Virus record (IMG/VR): IMGVR_UViG_3300031965_000020
Location: 3,529-67,528 of that record
DNA length: 64,000 bases
Source of the DNA: a virus
Taxonomy: Duplodnaviria > Caudoviricetes
Reading direction: 5' to 3' (one strand)
Below, one piece after another: positions 3,027 to 51,658 of the stretch (within the stretch, counting starts at the first letter, position 1; every line of letters begins with the position of its first letter). The translations under genes were made by a program, and so were the position numbers. The notes beneath the pieces were generated by a model. That model ran no database searches. It was not told the origin of the DNA and saw only the letters and a list, made by a program, of their open reading frames with translations.

Positions 3027-5132
3027 TCATGCAGGCCGCTCAAAGATCAGCGTATCGTCTTCGGGCACTGCAGGCAGCACATAATTCTTGAGCACGACCA
3101 CGTCGCGTCCGTAACTAATCGCAGGGGCCGACAACAGCCCTACCGGCGATGACGTATTGTGCTGGAACCAGAACGCCGAGATACCGTTGTAGATCTTCGC
3201 CGGATTGCCGTTCTTGTAGCGATTGATCGGGATCTTGTAGAGAATGCGCAGCGGCCCGCTCGTTGGCGTGAGAATCCACGACGAGCACATGTGGTACAAC
3301 AGCCCCGGATCGAGCGGCACGCCGGTTTGCGCTTCCCATTCGGGAAACTGCGTCGCATCCAGATTCAGCCGAATCTCCTGAACGTAGCGAATCCAGGTGC
3401 TATGTGGCAGGAACACCGTGTTTGGCGGCTCGATGCCTGGTCCTCCAGGTGCGCCATTGTTATCTGTCGCCCCGGCCACAAATGCAGGATAGATGCGATG
3501 GCGAACCACCCCGACGTTGCCAGCGGTCGAAAACTGATATCGCGTCTGCGTCTCGAAGAAAATTGAGCCTTGAAAATCCGCACCATCCTCATCGAAAGCA
3601 CAATGAAATTCCTTGTGTTGATACGCAGCGTTCGTCAGATTTCCGCCATTCTCGACGCTCTGCCACTCAGGGCCAAACCAGTAGTCCCATGTGACGAGGA
3701 TTGTGCCGGCGATCTGATGGACCGGGAAGACCAGCTTCTGACCGCCTCCGATACTGGCCTGGTCCGTGGGAAAAATCAGCTTTGCCGCATCTTGCTTCGC
3801 GGGATACGGATCACTGGCAAAGTCGTACGTATAACGCATCGAGAGGCCATTCTTGGTCAGGCCGTTCAACTCGACTTGATTGCGAAGACTACGACTCACC
3901 AATGCCGTCGATAGAGCACTCAAGGTCGCGAAGCGTGTACCGCTCGGTGGGGTAGGCGGAACAGCAAAGACCGTCAAATCGAGCGTCTTGATCGTGCCGA
4001 GTCCGTGCTGGTCGGTGACCACGAGTTGGGCGGTGTAGATACCTGATTGGCCGTAGCGCTTCGATGCAGTCGCTGGTGGCGCACCGGTATAGACAATGTC
4101 CCCAGATCCGTCCCCCCAGTTCAGCCGGCTGGACGCAATCGTGTCTCCGTCTGGATCGAGCGCGCTCATGGCGACAACGAAGTCGTCGGTGACGTAGATG
4201 CCAGAGACGCGTGAGAAGGTCACCTGCGGTGGCTGATTGGGCGCCGGAAGCGCGCTGATCGTCGTCGTGAGCGTGACGGTTGTTACCTGTCCGCTGGTGT
4301 CGGTGCAGGTCAACGCCACTTGGAAGGCACCTGACGTTGCATAGACATGGTTCAGACTCAGCGGCGGCACGCCCGCTGCACTGACAACAGTCCCATCGCC
4401 ATAATCAATGGACCAAGACGCCAATGACCAGTAGCCAGCGTGGGTTCCTTCAGTGCTCCAGGTAATCGTCTCGCCGACGAACTGACCCGAGACGTACTCC
4501 AGCGCGACAATCGGCGGATCCTGCACGGGCGGTGGATCGGGATCAGGGTCAGGTGGCGGTGGAATCGGATCGGCCGCGACGACAACGTCCGTCACGACCT
4601 CCGTAGTCAGTCCATTTGATGCGGTGACTCGTACGGTTACGACATACGCGATGGCCGCGCCGTACGTATGGGACACCGGGGTGGGCACGGCACCGTTCTC
4701 GTCGATCACGGTTCCATCGCCGTAATCAATATGGTACGACGCGATCTGTCCGACCACTTCGATGTCGAAGACGAATGCCTCGGAGAGATAGACACCCTCG
4801 ATGAGCGTCACCATGAGTGAGGGTGGCATCGGCGGAGGTGCCGACGGCACCGAAATTTCAATCGCCTGCGAGACGGTCGACATGCGCCCTTTGTTGTCTT
4901 CGACGTAGAGCGTCACGATGACCGTGCCGCCCGCTGTCGCATAGGTATAGGGAAGCGAGGCAGGCGGGAAGCCAGTCCCTTCGATGGGTGCGGACCCATC
5001 GCCAAGGTCGACGCGCCACTTTCGCAGAGTACCCTGCCGTGCGAAACTCGCCGACCCGTCGATGTTGATTTCGTCACCGTCACTGCCCAAGCGAGTGAGC
5101 GTCAAGACCGCTTGCGGAGATCGATCCTTCAC
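3027..5132 (-). CDS. PKD/Ig-like domain virion protein with C-terminal beta-sandwich
   Basis: Four W/Y-x-x-D/W-x-GDG PKD signatures (WRVDLGDG, YHIDYGDG, WSIDYGDG, RLNWGDG); GTG start after GGAGG preferred over track start 5180. Confidence 0.75.
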   Translation of the reverse strand: MKDRSPQAVLTLTRLGSDGDEINIDGSASFARQGTLRKWRVDLGDGSAPIEGTGFPPASLPYTYATAGGTVIVTLYVEDNKGRMSTVSQAIEISVPSAPPPMPPSLMVTLIEGVYLSEAFVFDIEVVGQIASYHIDYGDGTVIDENGAVPTPVSHTYGAAIAYVVTVRVTASNGLTTEVVTDVVVAADPIPPPPDPDPDPPPVQDPPIVALEYVSGQFVGETITWSTEGTHAGYWSLASWSIDYGDGTVVSAAGVPPLSLNHVYATSGAFQVALTCTDTSGQVTTVTLTTTISALPAPNQPPQVTFSRVSGIYVTDDFVVAMSALDPDGDTIASSRLNWGDGSGDIVYTGAPPATASKRYGQSGIYTAQLVVTDQHGLGTIKTLDLTVFAVPPTPPSGTRFATLSALSTALVSRSLRNQVELNGLTKNGLSMRYTYDFASDPYPAKQDAAKLIFPTDQASIGGGQKLVFPVHQIAGTILVTWDYWFGPEWQSVENGGNLTNAAYQHKEFHCAFDEDGADFQGSIFFETQTRYQFSTAGNVGVVRHRIYPAFVAGATDNNGAPGGPGIEPPNTVFLPHSTWIRYVQEIRLNLDATQFPEWEAQTGVPLDPGLLYHMCSSWILTPTSGPLRILYKIPINRYKNGNPAKIYNGISAFWFQHNTSSPVGLLSAPAISYGRDVVVLKNYVLPAVPEDDTLIFERPA

Positions 5133-5191
5133 GAGTCCCTCCTTGTTGGCGTCGGGGCAGCCGAGCAGATGACGAGGCATGAGCAGCTATT

Positions 5192-7132
5192 CTATTCCAG
5201 CGCCGGTGGGCTGTATGGTAGTCCATCCGTGCGCGCTGCACCAAGGATTCCTGGACAGACCGGTGGCCCAACATCGCCATGCGCAATGACAAACGGGCAC
5301 GAGAATGGGTGACCAAACGTATTGGCGATCTCGTCGTAGCGCAGCTTGAACTGCCCACCGTCCTGGACTTCAGCGCCGTACGGCGTCTCAACGTCGACAG
5401 TGCCGTTGCTCGCGTCAATGCGTTGGAACTTGCCGAGGCCGAACTCCTTGATCCACGTCCAGAAGAAGTTCGTATCATCGTCAGGATCGTGCGTGACGCG
5501 GTCAAGGTTGTCGGTTGCCGCACCAACGCCGTACTGCACGTCCCAGAGGAGTGTGCCAGCTGGCGTGAACTTTCGCAGGCGCGACTCATTCTGGTTGTTC
5601 AACCAGTAGCCGACGATCAGCGATTCATCTCCAAGGACGAGGAGCGCGCCGGGTGAAACTCCCGACGAATCAATCTTGTAGCCAGACAGCGCACTGATGA
5701 AGACACCGAGATCCGTGTCGCCGACGAGATCCCAGCGACGGACGGTATCGGCTGATGGATCGAGATAGTACGCAATCGTCTCAGCACGATTGATGGCCAG
5801 CATCTGTGCACCAGCCGTGAATGGCCCCCAGCGCGTACTCGGCATACCGGTCAGTGTGATACGCCGAACCCAAGTCTGTCCTGCCTCGGACGTAATCGCG
5901 TAGAAGTGGTCCGCGAAGTGTCCTGCGCCGATCGCCCCGACAAAGCCGGTGTTGGTGTAGAGCAGGTTCATGTCGCGGTCGTAGATGTTGTAGCGCGGCT
6001 CCTGGTGCGCGTCGTAGAAGAGGCTGATACCTGTTGAGGTGATGTCTGCCGTTTCGCCTGCAACCGTGTTCAGCCGGAAGCCTAGCGGTATCCCAGTCGC
6101 CGGATCGACGAATGCCGTAGGATAGCCGTCCTCGTCACTGTTGATGACCGGCACACCCTTGGCAACGGTTGGATAGTTCGGCGCGACGTAGACGTCAAAG
6201 TCGAACGACTCCATGAGGCCTTGTTCATTCGCCTCGATCTTGAAGTAGTAGGTCGTCCCGTTGGCGACGGGGATCTGCAAGCGACCGTTCGCGATGGAGT
6301 TCGCTCCAAGATAGACGGATGGCGCACCTTCAGGACCGACGTACACCGTGACGAATGGCCGTGGGTTCACGCTGGAGACAATCGAGGCCAGCATGCCGAG
6401 GACTTGTTCAGGCGAGGCGCTGGTGTATTTGTACCAGCTATAGAAGGCAACCAGCGAGCCGGTGACGGAGGCGGGAAGCGTAACGAGGTCGATGGCGGTG
6501 GTAATCGAATTGTTGACTGGCGTGTCGAACGTGATCGTCCCACCGGATTCTGCCCAGTCCCGCCCGTTGCCGGAGTCATCGAGCAGATCGTCGTAGAGCG
6601 GCGTGTCCAGCCAGAGATCAACCGTGTCGACAGGCGTTGGCGATGTCTGCTCGAAGAACTGCGGCGTTTCAGTGAGCGCCTTCGTCCAGGCACGGAGATA
6701 CGCAGCTTTGCTCGTTGACCAATCGGGTGCAAGCGTATCCGTTCCCGCGAGCAGATGTGTATGCGTCTGTAACGATTGATCCTGGACCGCCGTGCATTCT
6801 TCGACGAGATCGACGTAGACGCGGTGCGTCGTGCCAGTACGCGTATAGACGATGTAGTACCAGCCGATAGCTGGCAGCGTGGAGCCCAAGACTGGCGTCA
6901 CTGTCGAGTTGAGGAACATCAACAGGTTGCCGGTGGTGATCTGCAGGCCGACCCAGACACCTTCGGCATAGGTCGCCGGATCGTCGCCAAGGTAGAAGAA
7001 CGTCTGATAGTTCGCAGGCGTGAGGTCGGGAACGTAGAACCAGCCCGCGAGCGTCACGTCACCGCTGGCGGGTGGTACGTCTGCGCCCGTGAGGAGAAGA
7101 CCTTCAGGAGAATCCGCAAGAATGGCAGCCAT
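5192..7132 (-). CDS. Tail-associated protein: LamG/ConA-like domain plus beta-propeller-like C-terminus
   Basis: VTLAGWF...WYYIVYTR...HRVYVD LamG pattern; 646 aa. Confidence 0.7.
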   Translation of the reverse strand: MAAILADSPEGLLLTGADVPPASGDVTLAGWFYVPDLTPANYQTFFYLGDDPATYAEGVWVGLQITTGNLLMFLNSTVTPVLGSTLPAIGWYYIVYTRTGTTHRVYVDLVEECTAVQDQSLQTHTHLLAGTDTLAPDWSTSKAAYLRAWTKALTETPQFFEQTSPTPVDTVDLWLDTPLYDDLLDDSGNGRDWAESGGTITFDTPVNNSITTAIDLVTLPASVTGSLVAFYSWYKYTSASPEQVLGMLASIVSSVNPRPFVTVYVGPEGAPSVYLGANSIANGRLQIPVANGTTYYFKIEANEQGLMESFDFDVYVAPNYPTVAKGVPVINSDEDGYPTAFVDPATGIPLGFRLNTVAGETADITSTGISLFYDAHQEPRYNIYDRDMNLLYTNTGFVGAIGAGHFADHFYAITSEAGQTWVRRITLTGMPSTRWGPFTAGAQMLAINRAETIAYYLDPSADTVRRWDLVGDTDLGVFISALSGYKIDSSGVSPGALLVLGDESLIVGYWLNNQNESRLRKFTPAGTLLWDVQYGVGAATDNLDRVTHDPDDDTNFFWTWIKEFGLGKFQRIDASNGTVDVETPYGAEVQDGGQFKLRYDEIANTFGHPFSCPFVIAHGDVGPPVCPGILGAARTDGLPYSPPALE

Positions 7133-43291: not shown

Positions 43292-43335
43292 CGAGTGAGA
43301 TGATGACAGCCGATGGGCTGCGGAGGAATTAGACC

Positions 43336-44805
43336 ATGTGGGAACCAACTGATCCTGATCTTGACGAGACGCCGACGATCGAAGAGGCCGAGCCGTTTAT
43401 CCTTGACCCCCTCCAGCAGCAGGCCATCGCCGACTGCCGTGAGCATCTGTACACGAATATCAGCGGCACGGCTGGCGTAGGCAAGACCTTCGTCGCCAGA
43501 GAGATCGCCCAGTCGCCGGGCACGGTCCTCGCAGCCACGACCGGCATCGCCAGCGTCAACCTCGGCGAAGGCACCACGATCAACGCGCTGCTTCGCTACT
43601 TCAACACACAATCGCTGAAGGAAGCCTACACAGCAGGTTATCTCCAAGCGACCATTCGCAGGCTGCGGCGAGCAGGAACGACTCGCATTCTTATCGATGA
43701 GAAGTCAATGATGGCTGGCGAGCAGCTGACGTATATCACGCGAGCCGTGCGTGAAGTGAACGAGGGCGGGGTGTACGCGCTGGAGTCGGTGGGTATTGGC
43801 GAGAACGAGGATGACCCGAATCCGTTGCCCGAGCGCGACAGCGATTTACCACCAGTGGGGATTACGTTGGTGGGAGACTTCGGCCAACTGCCGCCCGTGC
43901 CTGATGCAGATCCACGAACAGGCAAGAAACTCCCTGTGCAGTACTGCTTCGACTCGCCTGAATGGCCAGCCTACGCCGAGCACACGACGCGACTGGAGAA
44001 GATCTACCGCCAGGACGCCAAGGCGTTCGTCGCGGCGCTGCATGCCGTACGACGCGCGGACGTGAAAACGGCGCTGGATTTCTTCACGGCTGATCGGTTC
44101 AGCTCGTCGATGGCTGATGCATTCGTGGGCTCGACCATCTTCGCCAAGAACGATGCCGTGGATCGCCATAACTTGTTGATGCTGGACAAGTTAGCTGGTG
44201 CGCCGATGGTGAGTCGATCCGTTCGCCAAGGCAAGCAGCGAGGCGACTGGAAGCTGGTGCCAGATGAGCTGCGGCTGAAGGAAGGCGCGTTGGTAATGAT
44301 CCTGGCGAACCGTCGCGTCTATGCGGATGACGAGGACGAGCGCGGCACGATGGTGTATGCCAATGGCGATCTCGGCGAGCTAGTTGGAAAGTCAGGCGCT
44401 GCGTGGTTGGTGAAGCTACAACGTACCGGTACCGTCGTGTCAGTCGTCCTCGTCAGACGCGAGAACACGATTCCGCTTGAAGTCGGCCGTCGCAAGCAGA
44501 TGAAGGAGCAGGGGCTGTCCGTCGAGGAGCGGATCACTGAGCGCGGCAAGGGCAAGAGCGAGATCATCGGGACGATTACGTATATGCCCTTGCGGGCGGC
44601 GTACGGCTGCACGGTGCATAAGACCCAAGGACTTTCGTTGACGAGCGTGCAGGTCAACATTCGAGACCCCTTCTTTCGGCAGCCAGGAATGTTATTTGTC
44701 GCACTATCGCGCTGCACAACAGCGGAAGGCTTGCGCATCGTTGGAGATCAGGCAGGTTTTGTCGAACGCTGCAAAATTGAACCACGAGTACAAAAATGGC
44801 TTTAG
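43336..44805 (+). CDS. RecD/Pif1-like SF1B helicase
   Basis: SGTAGVGKT, LIDEKSM, VGDFGQLPPV, IYRQ, CTVHKTQG, VALSRC. Confidence 0.92.
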   Translation: MWEPTDPDLDETPTIEEAEPFILDPLQQQAIADCREHLYTNISGTAGVGKTFVAREIAQSPGTVLAATTGIASVNLGEGTTINALLRYFNTQSLKEAYTAGYLQATIRRLRRAGTTRILIDEKSMMAGEQLTYITRAVREVNEGGVYALESVGIGENEDDPNPLPERDSDLPPVGITLVGDFGQLPPVPDADPRTGKKLPVQYCFDSPEWPAYAEHTTRLEKIYRQDAKAFVAALHAVRRADVKTALDFFTADRFSSSMADAFVGSTIFAKNDAVDRHNLLMLDKLAGAPMVSRSVRQGKQRGDWKLVPDELRLKEGALVMILANRRVYADDEDERGTMVYANGDLGELVGKSGAAWLVKLQRTGTVVSVVLVRRENTIPLEVGRRKQMKEQGLSVEERITERGKGKSEIIGTITYMPLRAAYGCTVHKTQGLSLTSVQVNIRDPFFRQPGMLFVALSRCTTAEGLRIVGDQAGFVERCKIEPRVQKWL

Positions 44806-47268: not shown

Positions 47269-49563
47269 ATGGCTAACCAGAATCCCCGTTATCCGCGCCC
47301 GGCTGGCTGCTCCGGCTGCTCCCTTGAGCACAACGGCTTCGGCTTCGTGCCTCCGGCGGGTCCAACCGACGCGCGGCTCATCCTCATTGGCGAATCGGCC
47401 GGCTGGGAGGAAGCAATCTCTGGCGAGCCGTTCTACGGGGCAGCTGGCGGGACGTTGTCGCGCTTGTTGGTGCGGGCGGGGATCGACCGCCGTCACGCAC
47501 GCATCGCGAACACAATCGCGTGCCGTCCGCCGGGCGATTACCTCGTCGGCGCCCCGTGGGAGGAGCACGCCATCGCACAATGCCGGCAATATCTCGATCC
47601 GGTGCTTGCCGCGGTGCCTGACAACGCAGTCGTCGTCCCGCTGGGCGCCACCGCGCTGACGACAGTCCTCGGATTACGCGGCGTGCCGGGCGTCAGCGTC
47701 AAGGATTTCCACGGGACGGTGTCGAGGTCAGTTGATGACCGCTACTGGGTCGTACCAACGTTTCACCCATCGCACCTGCAACGTGGCGCGATGAATTTGA
47801 TTGAAGTCGTCAGCCAGGATTTGCGACTGGCAGATCGGATTGGGCAGCGTGGGTTTGTTAGATCGCATTCTGAACTCGTCGTCGATCCTCATCCTGATTG
47901 GCTTCGCATGTGGGTTGGCCGGTATCTGCGCGATCTGGCTGGCGATCCGGAGACACACCACCTCGCTCTCGACACCGAGTTCGCCGAAAAATCCGGCGGA
48001 GCCGATGAATCTGAAGTTGTGCTCGGCGATGGTTCTTCACCCATCACCAGAGTCAATGGGGGACGGGATGCTCATACAGGGTGGACTGTACCTTATCGCC
48101 AACCGTACATCGCGATCCTTGAAGATCTCCTACGCGGAGTTGGTGGACAGCAGGGGTGGCTCTGGCTCTGGAATAAGTACGCAGACCTTGATCATCTCCG
48201 ACGTGCCGGACATGCCCTGACGGGCATTCAAGCCATCGACGCGATGTGGCTGTGGCATTACCTGCAGAGCGATTTACCACGCGGGTTGGGGTTTGTAGCC
48301 CCGATGGCTAGCGACTTCGGCGCGTGGAAGCACTGGGGCAAGGACAAGTCTCGTGAGGGCGAATACGCGGCTGCGGATGGCCAGCAGACTTGGCGTACAT
48401 CCATGTGGTTGTTGAAGGCGGCGATCGATCAGGGGATTTGGGAGATATTTTTAACTGATTGGCACGAGCGGGATGAATATGTGCTGCGGCCGGCGCATGA
48501 GCTGGGCACGCCGGTGAATAGAACCGCGCTGGTGGCGTTCCATGCGGAGCTGCAGCGGAAGCTGGCGTCGGTGCTAGAGCGGATCAAACTGACGGCTGCG
48601 CAGGGGGTGTTGAAACCTAAATTGGGGTATCGCAAGCGGCCGATGAAGACGTGCAGTGTGTGCGGCGGGAACGGTCGTATCCTCGTCGAAGGTGATTACA
48701 TCATCCGCGTGGGGCGGGGTAAGGGCTACGACGATATTGAGGGCATTGTTGCGTGCTTGTCGTGCAAGGGGGAAGGAAATCTACCTGCGCCGGTGCCTGC
48801 ATCTGTACTAGGCAAATTGACCGCCGGTGACGCCAAGGCGACCTACATGCTGGAAGGGGTGAAGCTTGTCGAACGTGAAGTCGAAGCGGACGTCACCGTC
48901 TGTGATAGCTGCGGAGCTGCGTGTGTTACACAATCGCATCGTTGTCCTCGACCGAAAGGTCCAAAGCGACCTCGGGCTGCTCGTCGCAAGAGTCGAGTCA
49001 ATGACGCAGGTGCTGTCGACGTTCATCAATCGAGTAGACACGTTGACGAACACGACAACCAACCTGCTCGACCACACGCAGCGTTTCGTGTGGAACGCCG
49101 TGCAGTCACTCGCTACTTCTGGCAACTCCCCTTCAACCCCGACGCGCCCGCGCAAATCCTCGCCTATCTCGCGAGTCAAAACATCGCCGCGCCCGTCGAC
49201 AAGAAAACCAAGCGCGCCACGACCAACAAGAAAGCGCTCGATGCGCTGAAGGCGCAGCATAGAGACGACCCCTTCTTCCAGTTGCAGATGGATTGGAAAG
49301 CGGTGCAGAAGGTGGATAGCGTGTATGCCGTAGGCAGTCTAGCCAAGCTCGACGATGACGACCGTTTGCATCCTGAGTTTTTGCCAAAGCCGTCGACCTT
49401 CCGCGATAGCTGCCAGAATCCGAACTTGCAGAACGTGGTCGCCGACAAGGCTGGGGCTGAGGGGTTAGCCGCAGGGTTCAGGCGCTGCATCGAGGCGAGA
49501 GACGGCGCGCCTGCGGGGACGACTGAGGATATGCTCCGCGCGTGGAGGAGTCGATGGACGTGA
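47269..49563 (+). CDS. polA: DNA polymerase A, N-terminal part: family 4 UDG domain, 3'-5' exonuclease, thumb
   Basis: CSGCSL...ILIGESAGWEE..SGEPFYGAAG, NTIACRPP, PTFHPS (UDG4); ALDTE, WNKYAD, YAAADG (Exo I-III); FNP, RLHPEF, NPNLQN (PolA). Confidence 0.9.
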   Translation: MANQNPRYPRPAGCSGCSLEHNGFGFVPPAGPTDARLILIGESAGWEEAISGEPFYGAAGGTLSRLLVRAGIDRRHARIANTIACRPPGDYLVGAPWEEHAIAQCRQYLDPVLAAVPDNAVVVPLGATALTTVLGLRGVPGVSVKDFHGTVSRSVDDRYWVVPTFHPSHLQRGAMNLIEVVSQDLRLADRIGQRGFVRSHSELVVDPHPDWLRMWVGRYLRDLAGDPETHHLALDTEFAEKSGGADESEVVLGDGSSPITRVNGGRDAHTGWTVPYRQPYIAILEDLLRGVGGQQGWLWLWNKYADLDHLRRAGHALTGIQAIDAMWLWHYLQSDLPRGLGFVAPMASDFGAWKHWGKDKSREGEYAAADGQQTWRTSMWLLKAAIDQGIWEIFLTDWHERDEYVLRPAHELGTPVNRTALVAFHAELQRKLASVLERIKLTAAQGVLKPKLGYRKRPMKTCSVCGGNGRILVEGDYIIRVGRGKGYDDIEGIVACLSCKGEGNLPAPVPASVLGKLTAGDAKATYMLEGVKLVEREVEADVTVCDSCGAACVTQSHRCPRPKGPKRPRAARRKSRVNDAGAVDVHQSSRHVDEHDNQPARPHAAFRVERRAVTRYFWQLPFNPDAPAQILAYLASQNIAAPVDKKTKRATTNKKALDALKAQHRDDPFFQLQMDWKAVQKVDSVYAVGSLAKLDDDDRLHPEFLPKPSTFRDSCQNPNLQNVVADKAGAEGLAAGFRRCIEARDGAPAGTTEDMLRAWRSRWT
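48866..49249 (+). CDS. Overprinted coiled-coil protein nested in +1 frame of polA
   Basis: 127 aa; heptad pattern; hand count GC3 53/70 in this frame versus 24/70 in the pol frame over 48901-49111. Confidence 0.55.
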   Translation: MSNVKSKRTSPSVIAAELRVLHNRIVVLDRKVQSDLGLLVARVESMTQVLSTFINRVDTLTNTTTNLLDHTQRFVWNAVQSLATSGNSPSTPTRPRKSSPISRVKTSPRPSTRKPSAPRPTRKRSMR

Positions 49564-49817
49564 TTGCACGCAAGGCGACGTTACTCAAGATGCCATTCGC
49601 GACGAGGCACTTCAATGCCAATCAGCGCGTGTGGGTGCTCGTCATTCGCTATCGGGCTGTGTACTGTATTGGCAAGTTTCGTGGCAGCGGGCGCTATGTC
49701 AAGGCGTGGGTTCACTGGAAAGGGAACATACCACTGCCGCTGAATGACATCGTGGTCACACGCGCATTCGCAGAACGGCTACATCTCTCGTCTGCGTTTG
49801 GGACGGACAATGGCTGA
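49554..49817 (+). CDS. Hypothetical protein inserted between polA halves
   Basis: GGAGGAG SD; GKFRGSGRYVKAWV. Confidence 0.65.
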   Translation: MDVIARKATLLKMPFATRHFNANQRVWVLVIRYRAVYCIGKFRGSGRYVKAWVHWKGNIPLPLNDIVVTRAFAERLHLSSAFGTDNG

Positions 49818-50268
49818 CTTAATCTCCCCCAAAGCCCTCAGCAACAAATTCTTCATCAATAGCCTAGCGGCTGGCCGCGGCATGCAAGCGCTGATGCGCG
49901 GCCAGATCATCGGCCCAATCGGCGTCGAGTTCAGCCCGTTCTATCTGTGCCGTGTGTTCCCAGCCGATGACGACGAGATCGAGATCTCGACCGAAACAGT
50001 CCTCGCGCTGGAGCAACTCGTCGGCGTCTATTTCTACGATGACCGGCAGACGCTTGACGTGGCATGGTCGCTGGTACAGCGCAAGATCGCCGTGCACGCC
50101 GCCAAGCAGCGCCGGGAGCGGAAAGCATTAGCAAAGAAGCAGATCGCCGAGATCACCGACACGCTGAAGCGCCAGGGGATCAACGTGGTCAAGGAGGAGG
50201 AGATCAAGGATTACGTCTCGCTGCGTGGTGGGGCGATTGCGGAGCAGGCGGAGGCGGATGACGATTGA
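49810..50268 (+). CDS. Hypothetical protein inserted between polA halves
   Basis: 152 aa; strong coding bias. Confidence 0.7.
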   Translation: MADLISPKALSNKFFINSLAAGRGMQALMRGQIIGPIGVEFSPFYLCRVFPADDDEIEISTETVLALEQLVGVYFYDDRQTLDVAWSLVQRKIAVHAAKQRRERKALAKKQIAEITDTLKRQGINVVKEEEIKDYVSLRGGAIAEQAEADDD

Positions 50269-50572: not shown

Positions 50573-51658
50573 GTGGGGTGGATGACGACTGAAGCGGATG
50601 TTTCCTGCCGTCTGTGCGAGTACGATTTTTCCGGGATCGAAGCCGTCCTCACAGGCATGTTCCTCTGGAAGCACGGCTTCTCCTCCGACGGTGCCAAGCA
50701 GTATATCCGCCTCGCCCGCCTTGGCATGCACGCCGCCGTCACCGCGCTCAAAGTTGGAAAACCGGTGGACTTGACATTGGCCGACGATCAGGTCAAGCCC
50801 GCCCTCGATGCGATCAAGAAAGCCTATCCCCGCGAGTACGACACATCGAAACGCACCGTCCACGCGAACAACTTCGGCATGTCGACCTATGGCATGGTCG
50901 AGAAGTTTCCTGAGTTCTTCCCAACGCTCAAGGCAGCCGAGCAGTTCCAGCGGCTGTACTACGCACTCGCACCGGATCTGCCGAAGTGGCACCACGCGCT
51001 GCGGAAGCAAGCGAGAGACGCAGGCTATCTCGGTGGCGTCGCGAAGCCCAGTATCCAGCCATCAATCTGGACACACCCCTACGGCTATCGCCACTGGTTT
51101 TGGGACGTGCAGAACTTCCAGCCCTGCAACGAGTTCACCGCTCGCAAATGGCACGCTGACCCGACTCGCGCTCATCGCATTGTCTACATGCACGGCAGGC
51201 CGTTCAAGGTGCGGCCGGGAGGTGACGCGAATCGCGTGATTGCGTTCTATCCACAGTCGACCGCGGCTGGTCGGCTCAAAGAAGTCGAGAACCGGCTGTT
51301 CCTCCCGTGGAGCGATGACTATATCGGGGATTGCTACTTCGGCCGGACGCCGCTGCTCGGGCCGATCCATGATTCGCTGCTGCTGCATGTACCGAATCGC
51401 TGCGTGGATAAAGTCACCGAGATCGTCGCGAGGGTCATGCAGGAGCCGAGTCGATACCTACCGATTCCCCCGGCATGGGGCTGGGGCGATTATTTACCGA
51501 TTGGCGTCGCGGCCAAGATCGGCCGTAACTGGGGCGAGATGGAAGACTTGAAGATTCAACAGTGGGTGCCGAGTGCGGGAGCCGATAATCCTGTCCTGCC
51601 ACGCGAGTCCGAGGGCGAATACGACGACTGGCAGGAATTGGCGAGGAGTGTGGCATGA
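50573..51658 (+). CDS. polA: DNA polymerase A, C-terminal part (palm/fingers, motifs A-C)
   Basis: Motif A YDFSGIE, motif B SKRTVHANNFGM, FYPQSTAA, motif C PIHDSLLL; own GGAGG SD; in-frame stop just upstream. Confidence 0.9.
   Translation: MGWMTTEADVSCRLCEYDFSGIEAVLTGMFLWKHGFSSDGAKQYIRLARLGMHAAVTALKVGKPVDLTLADDQVKPALDAIKKAYPREYDTSKRTVHANNFGMSTYGMVEKFPEFFPTLKAAEQFQRLYYALAPDLPKWHHALRKQARDAGYLGGVAKPSIQPSIWTHPYGYRHWFWDVQNFQPCNEFTARKWHADPTRAHRIVYMHGRPFKVRPGGDANRVIAFYPQSTAAGRLKEVENRLFLPWSDDYIGDCYFGRTPLLGPIHDSLLLHVPNRCVDKVTEIVARVMQEPSRYLPIPPAWGWGDYLPIGVAAKIGRNWGEMEDLKIQQWVPSAGADNPVLPRESEGEYDDWQELARSVA

Follow-up and report, generated by a model that had tools for sequence, protein, structure and literature searches.

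Results

A second reading frame within a phage DNA polymerase gene

Does the gene for a phage DNA polymerase carry a second protein-coding gene, read in a shifted frame of the same strand? The question is raised by a locus in a 64,000-nucleotide stretch of a Caudoviricetes genome (IMG/VR record IMGVR_UViG_3300031965_000020, positions 3,529 to 67,528), called here the window, for which an earlier note had claimed a coiled-coil protein with a basic tail encoded inside a dispensable polymerase loop. This claim is supported by homologs, and in our judgement the open reading frame (ORF) in the +1 frame is probably a real overprinted protein-coding gene. The judgement rests on comparison of sequences, no expression data being available. 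Features of the locus are listed in Table 1.

Table 1. Features of the polymerase locus (positions in the window).
Feature	Position	Strand	Remarks
Host gene, N-terminal half of split family A DNA polymerase	47269..49563	+	Pfam, PHROG 17
Antisense ORF, 150 aa, codon-aligned with polymerase	48808..49260	-	Judged shadow ORF
Shine-Dalgarno-like AAGGGG	48854..48859	+	Built from polymerase Glu529-Gly530-Val531 codons; 6 nt before TTG
+1-frame TGA	48860..48862	+	One codon before TTG
Putative nested +1-frame gene, 127 codons + TGA	48866..49249	+	TTG start
Basic N-terminal arm, aa 1-10	48866..48895	+	Net charge +3 over first 14 residues
Single long amphipathic helix, aa 11-84, candidate coiled coil	48896..49117	+	AlphaFold2; periodicity
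Second Zn-ribbon knuckle of polymerase (C545, C548, H557, C559)	48901..48945	+	Polymerase frame; columns invariant in alignment
Variable disordered polymerase loop (residues 560-605)	48946..49083	+	Tip of beta-hairpin, strands 532-545 / 606-619
Most conserved +1 motif, LLxxRVESMTQVLSxxIxRV	48977..49036	+	Also in L008, L040, L044, P0122, P0123
Disordered Ser/Thr/Pro/Arg/Lys tail, aa 85-127	49118..49246	+	Net charge +13 over last 42 residues
C-terminal half of split polymerase	50573..51658	+	Pfam DNA_pol_A C-terminal part; PHROG 17

The host gene comprises a UDG-like domain, an exonuclease, two Zn ribbons and the beginning of the polymerase domain. Pfam detects UDG (1.8e-20) and DNA_pol_A (1.4e-9) in it, PHROG 17 is matched, and the test for membership in the UDG-polA family is passed above threshold, with 73.9 bits for PF03167 and, in this N-terminal half, 37.9 bits for PF00476. 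The C-terminal half reaches 27.6 bits only, below the Pfam cut-off, its identity being backed by PHROG 17. Among the matches listed there are at least 120 polymerase homologs (39-81% identity), the closest of those listed being P0008 (81%). Common to more than 100 homologs are the Zn knuckle, a variable basic/acidic loop and RYFWQLPFNPD. The loop measures 17-93 aa across homologs, and AlphaFold2 gives it pLDDT below 50 at residues 571-597, without any secondary structure over residues 552-605. The polymerase frame nevertheless runs uninterrupted through the overlap and, as the earlier note had it, resumes at YFWQLPFNP downstream. Among GenBank phages, tblastn found distant UDG-domain matches only, and scans of viral contigs with the polymerase protein and with P0122 and P0123 (described below) yielded no useful match. 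Relatives of the polymerase lie in MAG bins of unrelated phyla, so that no host can be assigned.

Start and codon usage of the nested ORF

The nested ORF was found where it had been reported, with the translation as quoted. Its TTG consists of the last two letters of the polymerase Leu533 codon CTT and the G of Val534; TTG is a weak start codon. The Shine-Dalgarno-like element (AAGGGG, or AGGGGT as first described) is indeed there, its end being 6 nt away from the TTG. The +1-frame TGA just upstream restricts entry by frameshifting or from a more upstream start.

Length of the ORF is no evidence in its favour, since 188 stop-to-stop ORFs in the window (61% GC) are 128 codons long or longer. 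Codon usage, unlike length, marks the +1 frame as coding-like and the polymerase frame as shadow-like. Over 70 codons counted from 48898/48899, GC3 amounts to 52/70 in the nested frame and 25/70 in the polymerase frame, so that the reversal claimed from a first count (53 and 24) is upheld; elsewhere in the host gene, polymerase GC3 is 0.67-0.76. A log-likelihood ratio of codon usage, with 45 other window ORFs as training set, is +10.6 for the +1 frame at 48889-49068 (maximum 18.2) and -16.1 for the polymerase frame, and merely 0.24% of +1-frame windows in other genes attain the value of +10.6. The phage genome holds no paralog of the nested gene, and an HMM search of the window and of all loci, non-carrier loci included, found no second copy of the group A helix.

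Predicted nested protein

The nested protein would be 127 residues long and very basic (pI about 12), without Cys. From an alignment of 22 sequences, AlphaFold2 predicts a helix over residues 11-84 with pLDDT 93-98, and the 3.5-residue hydrophobic periodicity of this helix was matched by none of 2000 shuffles. Helical periodicity is significant in just 11 of the 22 nested proteins, and a strict single-register heptad test gives significance for a minority of them only. At the most conserved motif, identity is 65-72% in the +1 frame as against 35-39% in the polymerase frame of the same DNA. The DNA of the tail overlaps the conserved polymerase segment WFWQLPFNPDAPAQ..., whose constrained codons (L620 CTC, P621 CCC, P624 CCC, L631 CTC, A641 GCG, A656 GCG) result in retention of Ser, Pro and Arg in the nested tail.

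Neither a hydrophobic N-terminus nor a transmembrane segment is evident in the protein. With 12-18 bits against cut-offs of 23-31, it does not qualify for the Pfam families SlyX (PF04102), ZapB (PF06005) or PAP1 (PF08601), and no bZIP model matches it. In the PDB profile search, the top hit was reovirus sigma-1 (E 4e-4), a trimeric coiled coil of generic type; nothing beyond generic coiled coils or scores below threshold came from this search, the ESM Atlas, Pfam or PHROGs. No clue to function of the protein was found in family, fold or gene context.

Conservation of frame, start and Shine-Dalgarno-like element

About 30 uncultured phage relatives carry the arrangement (carriers), 28 remaining after removal of redundancy. 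Not a single +1 stop occurs over polymerase residues 540-619 in these 28, and the nested span is the longest conserved +1-open stretch of the host gene among them. A +1 stop is found in the alignment bin right before the start in 16/28 carriers, and such stops also cluster at the nested stop (14/28 and 15/26). The earlier note had held that +1 stops in homologs would refute its claim; the frame is open in carriers and the start is conserved. That the loop by itself is open counts for little, since T is scarce at the second codon position of a hydrophilic loop and an open +1 frame is therefore expected there. Codon shuffling and synonymous resampling of the loop alone gave a probability of openness between 0.05 and 1.0 per sequence, a result too weak to build on.

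The start and the Shine-Dalgarno-like element have left traces in the choice of polymerase codons. At Leu533, 22 of 26 carriers use CTT, a rare codon with a share of 9.3% (p 2e-19), and at Gly530, 20 of 24 use GGR, whose share is 39% (p 9e-6); in non-carriers the latter position is occupied by GGC or CGG. Val534 is GTY in 26 of the 28 non-redundant carriers, where GTA would make a stop. These binomial p-values overstate independence, as the sequences share ancestry. Judged by sequence, carriers have conserved a start and a ribosome-binding site of their own (the CTT-derived TTG and GGR), and both are gone in a non-carrier clade.

This derived clade (L013, L017 and L039) has a different insert, with polymerase GC3 of 0.8-0.95, and its +1 frame is interrupted by three stops; the Leu codon is CTG instead of CTT, which turns the start into TGA, and the Gly codon is GGC instead of GGR. 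The clade is a natural case of loss, in which the nested frame has disappeared together with TTG, Shine-Dalgarno-like element and reversed GC3. In carriers, GC content of the loop at polymerase codon positions 1, 2 and 3 is about 0.8/0.6/0.4, which becomes a normal coding pattern (0.6/0.4/0.8) when read in the nested frame. The share of core-hydrophobic residues in the +1 loop peptide is 28-46% in all 30 carriers, compared with 18% for the +1 frame in the rest of the polymerase and 2-13% in non-carriers.

Synonymous constraint and peptide conservation in the two frames

Synonymous variation was scanned without bias over 354 columns with conserved amino acid, 41 of them inside the nested span. 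Of the ten polymerase codons under the strongest synonymous constraint, eight fall within the span (Fisher p 6e-7). At 4-fold sites, diversity is 0.46 in the nested tail vs 0.58 outside (p 0.004), while for the entire span the fall is modest (0.51 vs 0.58, p 0.07). Reduced synonymous variation of the polymerase, proposed in the earlier note as a check, is thus seen at specific codons of the overlap, the whole-span difference reaching only the latter p-value.

In seven pairs (W/L008, W/L040, L008/L040, L040/L044, L032/L038, L003/L019 and L005/L011) the +1 peptide outscores the polymerase peptide, in alignments that had been selected on the +1 peptide; in the pairs L007/L015, L009/L015 and L006/L014 it is the polymerase frame that is better conserved. 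The central domain of the nested protein cannot be aligned across all clades, and lineages bearing the conserved motif are dispersed over the polymerase tree. Local loop alignments based on DNA only were too short for a substitution spectrum by codon position.

Free-standing relatives

A profile of nested proteins was compared with a database of 1.84 billion representatives. It retrieved P0122 (E 5e-16), which shares 82% identity over 62 aa with the nested protein of L008, and P0123 (E 1e-6), both of them separately called small proteins with ATG starts and basic N-termini (+6 and +5, respectively). P0122 was also the sole match in a word-indexed search with the nested-protein alignment. The source contigs of the two are only 723 and 963 nt long, and the evidence is at the protein level. 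Since residues of P0122 cannot encode the invariant CxxC and His of the polymerase in the overlapping frame, its copy apparently lies outside an intact polymerase gene, an inference drawn from the genetic code and from the protein sequence only. Two further candidates, the repeat-rich coiled coils P0121 and P0124, were set aside as matches driven by composition.

Discussion

Proposed mode of expression and origin

We propose that ribosomes would start at TTG 48866 on the polymerase mRNA, making use of AAGGGG, which is itself supplied by the conserved Glu-Gly-Val codons of the polymerase. The product would consist of a short basic N-terminal arm, an amphipathic helix of some 74 residues, probably a coiled coil, and a disordered tail of some 43 residues rich in Ser, Pro, Arg and Lys. 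The helix is encoded by the Zn knuckle and the disordered hairpin-tip loop of the polymerase, so mutual constraint is least there; the tail, lying over a strongly conserved polymerase segment, would be tuned through positions that are synonymous in the polymerase. Self-association might be mediated by the helix and binding of nucleic acid by the basic arms, both being inferred without functional data, and the protein would presumably act in replication, its dosage fixed relative to the polymerase. That it is a nucleic-acid-binding coiled coil remains an inference without binding data, and its function is unknown. A role as bridge between the two split polymerase halves, also raised in the earlier note, is weakened by unsplit polymerases (L048, L003 and L004) showing a similar +1 signature.

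As to the origin, we can offer only a tentative reading, which we hold to be possible rather than probable: the nested gene would have been born de novo by overprinting on the disordered tip loop of the polymerase, come under selection as a coiled coil that binds nucleic acid and is linked to replication, and escaped later to a free-standing existence. In this reading VPKAA..., which P0122 carries and which is the +1 reading of the polymerase Zn-knuckle CTTCG, would be a relic of embedded origin. If true, birth and emancipation of a gene would be traceable in dsDNA phages.

Alternative explanations

It might be objected that there is no second gene at all, the +1 ORF being a by-product of a hydrophilic, Arg/Pro/Asp-rich disordered loop flanked by conserved polymerase sequence, and its common features reflecting phylogenetic inertia and codon-context effects. 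We consider this unlikely, even though ORFs this long are common in the 61% GC window, loop openness alone is only weakly significant per sequence, central +1 peptides are unalignable between clades with the polymerase frame better kept in some pairs, and the mean reduction in synonymous diversity is modest. Left unexplained by such a by-product are CTT in 22/26 carriers, GGR at the Shine-Dalgarno-like element and the top constrained sites in the span, as well as low polymerase GC3 of the loop, given the values in the frame-less sister clade, the 37% hydrophobic content and helical periodicity of the +1 frame, and the separately called P0122 and P0123. A programmed +1 frameshift at or after CTT 48865, giving a second product in the style of dnaX or prfB, would fuse a truncated UDG-exonuclease-Zn-ribbon protein to the coiled coil and basic tail. 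The earlier note had allowed for such a fusion, which we regard as quite improbable. The conserved CUU 3' of a Shine-Dalgarno-like element does recall the prfB site, and the +1 frame is open from 48863; however, CTT is followed by a common Val codon (GTC or GTT), so that the zero-frame stop or hungry codon of a prfB-type site, at which the ribosome would pause, is missing, and the Shine-Dalgarno-like element lies 5 nt from CTT, where prfB needs 3 nt, its 6-nt distance from TTG fitting initiation. Moreover, P0122 and P0123 have ATG starts and basic N-termini of their own, and RNA folding predicts nothing stable at the site (z 0.66).

Even smaller is the chance we give to a non-coding constraint, such as RNA structure or a regulatory signal in the polymerase mRNA, or to the antisense ORF as the true second gene. 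The wobble position of the antisense ORF also coincides with polymerase position 1, and GC3 alone therefore cannot distinguish it from the +1 frame. Against it, several homologs (L004, L008, L009, L023, L029 and L042) have the antisense frame interrupted or reduced to 0-52 codons, its codon-position GC of 0.4/0.6/0.8 is atypical for coding sequence, and neither Pfam nor PHROGs holds a family matching it; for RNA structure, there is no Rfam match and folding at the start is not unusual. The conserved motif and the database relatives belong to the +1 sense frame. Finally, two compensating indels might have shifted the true polymerase frame, the coiled coil being really part of the polymerase. 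Such an assembly artefact, for which nothing but the local reversal of codon usage could be adduced, is effectively refuted by the alignments: more than 100 homologs, assembled independently, agree with the polymerase reading (CxxC...HRCP, then a basic stretch, then R..RYFWQLPFNPD), and some 30 of them repeat the two-frame arrangement. The paired indels that the earlier note wished to see ruled out are thereby excluded.

Comparison with known overlapping genes

An overprinted gene at this locus has partial counterparts elsewhere. Embedded spanin genes are exemplified by lambda Rz1, located wholly inside Rz in the +1 frame (PMC6139136, PMC5295617). Like the nested gene, Rz1 lies on the same strand, is fully nested in the +1 frame, has its own start and is kept in this arrangement across many phages. 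The gene hosting Rz1 encodes an i-spanin of the lysis cassette, whereas here the host gene encodes a DNA polymerase and there is no lysis cassette. The nested protein, unlike Rz1, has no signal peptide, lipobox or Cys and looks like a cytoplasmic, highly basic helix; lacking both Cys and a hydrophobic N-terminus, and with a polymerase as host gene, it cannot be counted as an o-spanin of the Rz1 kind.

In hepatitis B virus (HBV), the spacer domain of the polymerase is overlapped by preS/S (PMC9093120, PMC3618453). There, as here, a gene in a shifted frame sits on a variable, disordered and indel-tolerant part of the polymerase, and constraint is traded between the frames. HBV is an animal reverse-transcribing virus whose compact genome has all its genes overlapping and whose overlapped product is an envelope protein, while the 67-kb dsDNA phage is under no comparable compaction pressure and has a small basic helix as the product of its overlap. 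The likeness is one of overlap mechanism, not of homology. Small out-of-frame proteins within essential phage genes are also represented by phiX174 E within D, K across A/C, and by MS2 L. The genomes of these phages, of ssDNA or ssRNA, are very small. E and L, both of them membrane-active lysis proteins, contain a hydrophobic segment; in the nested protein there is no sign of a transmembrane segment. In its layout, with a basic arm beside a long amphipathic helix, the protein resembles bZIP and short coiled coils of the SlyX/ZapB type, without evidence for membership in any of these families.

Comparative support for the nested gene is unusually complete, comprising a rare-codon start, site-specific constraint, a clade with loss and non-overlapping relatives. 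It would represent a family of coiled-coil proteins, small, basic and co-transcribed with the replicative polymerase, and would indicate that in large dsDNA phages, much as on the polymerase spacer of HBV, new genes can originate on those loops of essential enzymes that are disordered and tolerate indels. Because gene finders forbid long same-strand overlaps, such genes are missed in phage and metagenome annotation.

Nested reading frame and its host gene

The window covers 64 kb of a 67.5-kb IMG/VR virus record (GC 61%), and its split family A DNA polymerase (Table) has 335 relatives of the N-half (pol) in a search of 5.8 billion proteins. Ninety-seven aligned relatives share with the window protein a common layout: CxxC...H.C, a basic stretch, a variable low-complexity loop of 17-93 residues and R..R(Y/W)FWQLPFNPD. 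The pol reading frame is real, and since the layout is shared by these relatives, paired assembly indels are excluded as the origin of the two-frame pattern described below. The AlphaFold2 prediction from a 46-sequence alignment puts the loop at the tip of a beta-hairpin (strands 532-545 and 606-619), with residues 552-605 lacking secondary structure and pLDDT <50 at 571-597.

Features of the polymerase region in window coordinates
Feature	Position	Strand	Remarks
PIF1/RecD-like superfamily 1 helicase	43333-44805	+	AAA_30, PIF1; upstream of pol
pol, N-half of polymerase, 764 aa	47269-49563	+	UDG-like domain, exonuclease region, first part of family A polymerase domain
+1 ORF, 139 aa	47801-48220		covers second variable pol stretch
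Second variable pol stretch	47989-48170		…KSGGADESEVVLGDGSSPITRVNGG…
Antisense ORF, 150 aa	48808-49260	-	codon-aligned with pol over the loop
Nested ORF, 127 codons	48866-49249	+	+1 frame of pol; TTG 48866 to TGA 49249
First ORF between polymerase halves	49744-50268
Remainder of polymerase	50573-51658	+	downstream of two small ORFs separating the halves

Neighbouring ORFs mostly lack a Pfam match. The first ORF between the halves carries a KFFIN…FSP.YLC..FP motif also found in the relative L017 (about 2300-2660), so that the genes separating the halves are conserved cargo and not junk. Relatives of pol also turn up in MAGs assigned to Ardenticatenales, Pseudonocardiaceae, Gemmatimonadales, Thermoplasmatota and Patescibacteria (L047-L051), probably as mis-binned phage contigs.

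An earlier note, based on the sequence alone, had proposed a coiled-coil gene overprinted inside pol, and the ORF it described in the +1 frame was confirmed. AAGGGG ends 6 nt upstream of its TTG, and a +1-frame TGA lies one codon upstream. Because 188 ORFs in the window run for 128 codons or more from stop to stop, ORF length is uninformative. The GC3 counts made by hand in that note are borne out by a recount, which gave 25/70 codons for the pol frame and 52/70 for the nested one; the rest of the gene has a pol GC3 of 0.67-0.76. When codon usage is scored by a log-likelihood ratio whose training set was 45 further long ORFs of the window, 48889-49068 looks like genuine coding sequence in the +1 frame (+10.6, maximum 18.2) and like a shadow in the pol frame (-16.1); in other genes only 0.24% of +1-frame windows reach +10.6. 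This score is more telling than ORF length; a single sequence alone is insufficient.

Pol GC3 is also low in the second variable pol stretch (0.43-0.5), where the coding score of the +1 frame is weakly positive at +4.7. Stops are frequent nearby in homologs, and the +1 ORF covering it is probably nothing.

Conservation among relatives

The comparative DNA set comprised 42 metagenomic, 2 viral and 5 MAG loci. In 28 non-redundant carriers, i.e. loci keeping the nested frame, the +1 frame is free of stops over pol residues 540-619. Stops concentrate just upstream of the TTG (16/28 carriers) and at two conserved sites some 125-135 nt past the WFW motif, and no comparable conserved +1-open stretch exists elsewhere in the pol gene of these 28 carriers.

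The nested TTG is made from the pol codons Leu533 and Val534. At Leu533, 22 of 26 carriers use CTT, a codon that accounts for just 9.3% of the leucines encoded by these genes (p 2e-19). The Gly530 codon, which makes up the Shine-Dalgarno core, takes the form GGG or GGA in 20 of 24 (39% share, p 9e-6). For Val534, 26 of the 28 non-redundant carriers have GTC or GTT; GTA would create a stop there. A scan of all 354 conserved-amino-acid pol columns, blind to the nested ORF, placed eight codons of the nested span (L533, L620, L631, A641, P621, P624, L606 and A656) among the ten most synonymously constrained (Fisher p 6e-7). We read the preferred pol codons as those that retain Ser, Pro and Arg within the nested tail while shunning Cys, Phe, Trp and Tyr. 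Fourfold-site diversity is 0.46 in the tail versus 0.58 outside (p 0.004), and over the whole nested span 0.51 versus 0.58 with p only 0.07; the constraint is thus site-specific, not uniform.

GC in carrier loops is about 0.8/0.6/0.4 at pol positions 1/2/3, which in the nested frame reads 0.6/0.4/0.8, an ordinary coding pattern. The +1 loop translation is 28-46% core-hydrophobic in 30/30 carriers, compared with 18% for the +1 frame of the remaining pol. The window motif LLxxRVESMTQVLSxxIxRV recurs in L008/L010, L040 and L044, with the same nucleotides giving 50-72% identity in the +1 frame versus 21-39% in the pol frame. The +1 frame is also the better conserved in L032/L038, L003/L019 and L005/L011, and does not beat the pol frame in L007/L015, L009/L015 and L006/L014. 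Motif-bearing lineages are scattered over the pol tree from basal to derived, which fits an old domain that some lines have retained and others have reshaped. Cassette exchange is not excluded.

One clade placed among the carriers on the pol tree (L013/L017/L039) has lost the nested frame. It carries another insert, whose codon usage is ordinary (pol GC3 0.81-0.95), as well as three +1 stops, CTG ATC instead of CTT GTC, giving TGA exactly at the nested start position, and GCG GGC instead of GAR GGR at the Shine-Dalgarno site. Its +1 translation is Arg/Ser/Pro-rich, a typical off-frame reading. Such joint disappearance of all signals is as expected if they serve one gene. The longer insert replacing the disordered loop in this clade (L013: about 5000-5450; …CEKAGHDTYW…GCRTC…) looks like a third Cys-rich knuckle.

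Inferred initiation and alternative explanations

Comparison shows a putative internal initiation site, conserved together with a +1 frame under site-specific constraint. If, as we infer, the TTG is used on pol mRNA, the small protein would be made whenever the polymerase message is translated. The earlier note had also allowed for a +1 frameshift fusing the upstream pol part to the coiled coil. This is unlikely, as the Shine-Dalgarno spacing suits initiation, CTT is followed by a common Val codon, and the free relatives P0122 and P0123 start with ATG. The bridge it suggested between the split polymerase halves is likewise improbable, because the unsplit polymerases L048, L003 and L004 carry the same +1 signature. 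There is no support for an RNA element or an antisense gene as the cause of the constraint. The antisense ORF is broken in several homologs and we judge it a shadow ORF.

The core of the proposal, a second protein in the +1 frame of pol, is accordingly supported by comparative evidence. We consider it likely that this is a real overprinted gene whose product, a small and basic coiled-coil protein, is new and has no known function; its translation is unproven. In how it works, the arrangement resembles lambda Rz1, which is embedded in Rz (PMC6139136), and more closely HBV preS/S, which overlaps the disordered spacer of the polymerase (PMC9093120, PMC3618453). Nothing comparable turned up in a literature search on genes overprinted in phage DNA polymerases. 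The nested protein belongs neither to the spanin family nor to any other protein family tested.

Predicted product and relatives outside the overlap

AlphaFold2, run on 22 nested sequences, predicts a single helix (residues 11-84, pLDDT 93-98) and a disordered tail after it. In the window protein the hydrophobic residues recur with a period near 3.5 more strongly than in any of 2000 shuffles; this periodicity is significant in 11 of 22 nested homologs. The pI is about 12, and tail charge is +10 to +17 in 21/22 proteins (+7 in L020). Family, fold-library and language-model searches gave nothing beyond generic coiled-coil matches. By inference, the helix may oligomerise and the basic arms may bind nucleic acid; taken jointly, we give this low confidence.

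A profile of four nested proteins, run against 1.84 billion representatives, matched P0122 (111 aa, E 5e-16) and P0123 (97 aa, E 1e-6), each called as its own gene. Over 62 residues P0122 and the nested protein of L008 share 82% identity; their termini are unrelated. Its K-V-P-K-A-A aligns with the L008 stretch overlapping the pol CTTC knuckle, whose Cys/His residues are invariant in the pol alignment; under the genetic code, no choice of codons for K-V-P-K-A-A leaves either Cys, or the His, in the overlapping pol frame. From protein sequence alone we thus infer that the P0122 copy does not lie inside an intact polymerase, with the reservation that P0122 and P0123 come from contigs of only 723 and 963 nt. 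Since in both free proteins the N- and C-termini are still basic (+5 and +6) on either side of a neutral helix, this layout is suggested to be selected, not merely forced by overlap. The nested-helix profile also matches P0124 (369 aa) and P0121 (3967 aa), which contain many tandem DDLTQQVSxLxQRV-like heptad-type repeats, probably through convergent coiled-coil composition.
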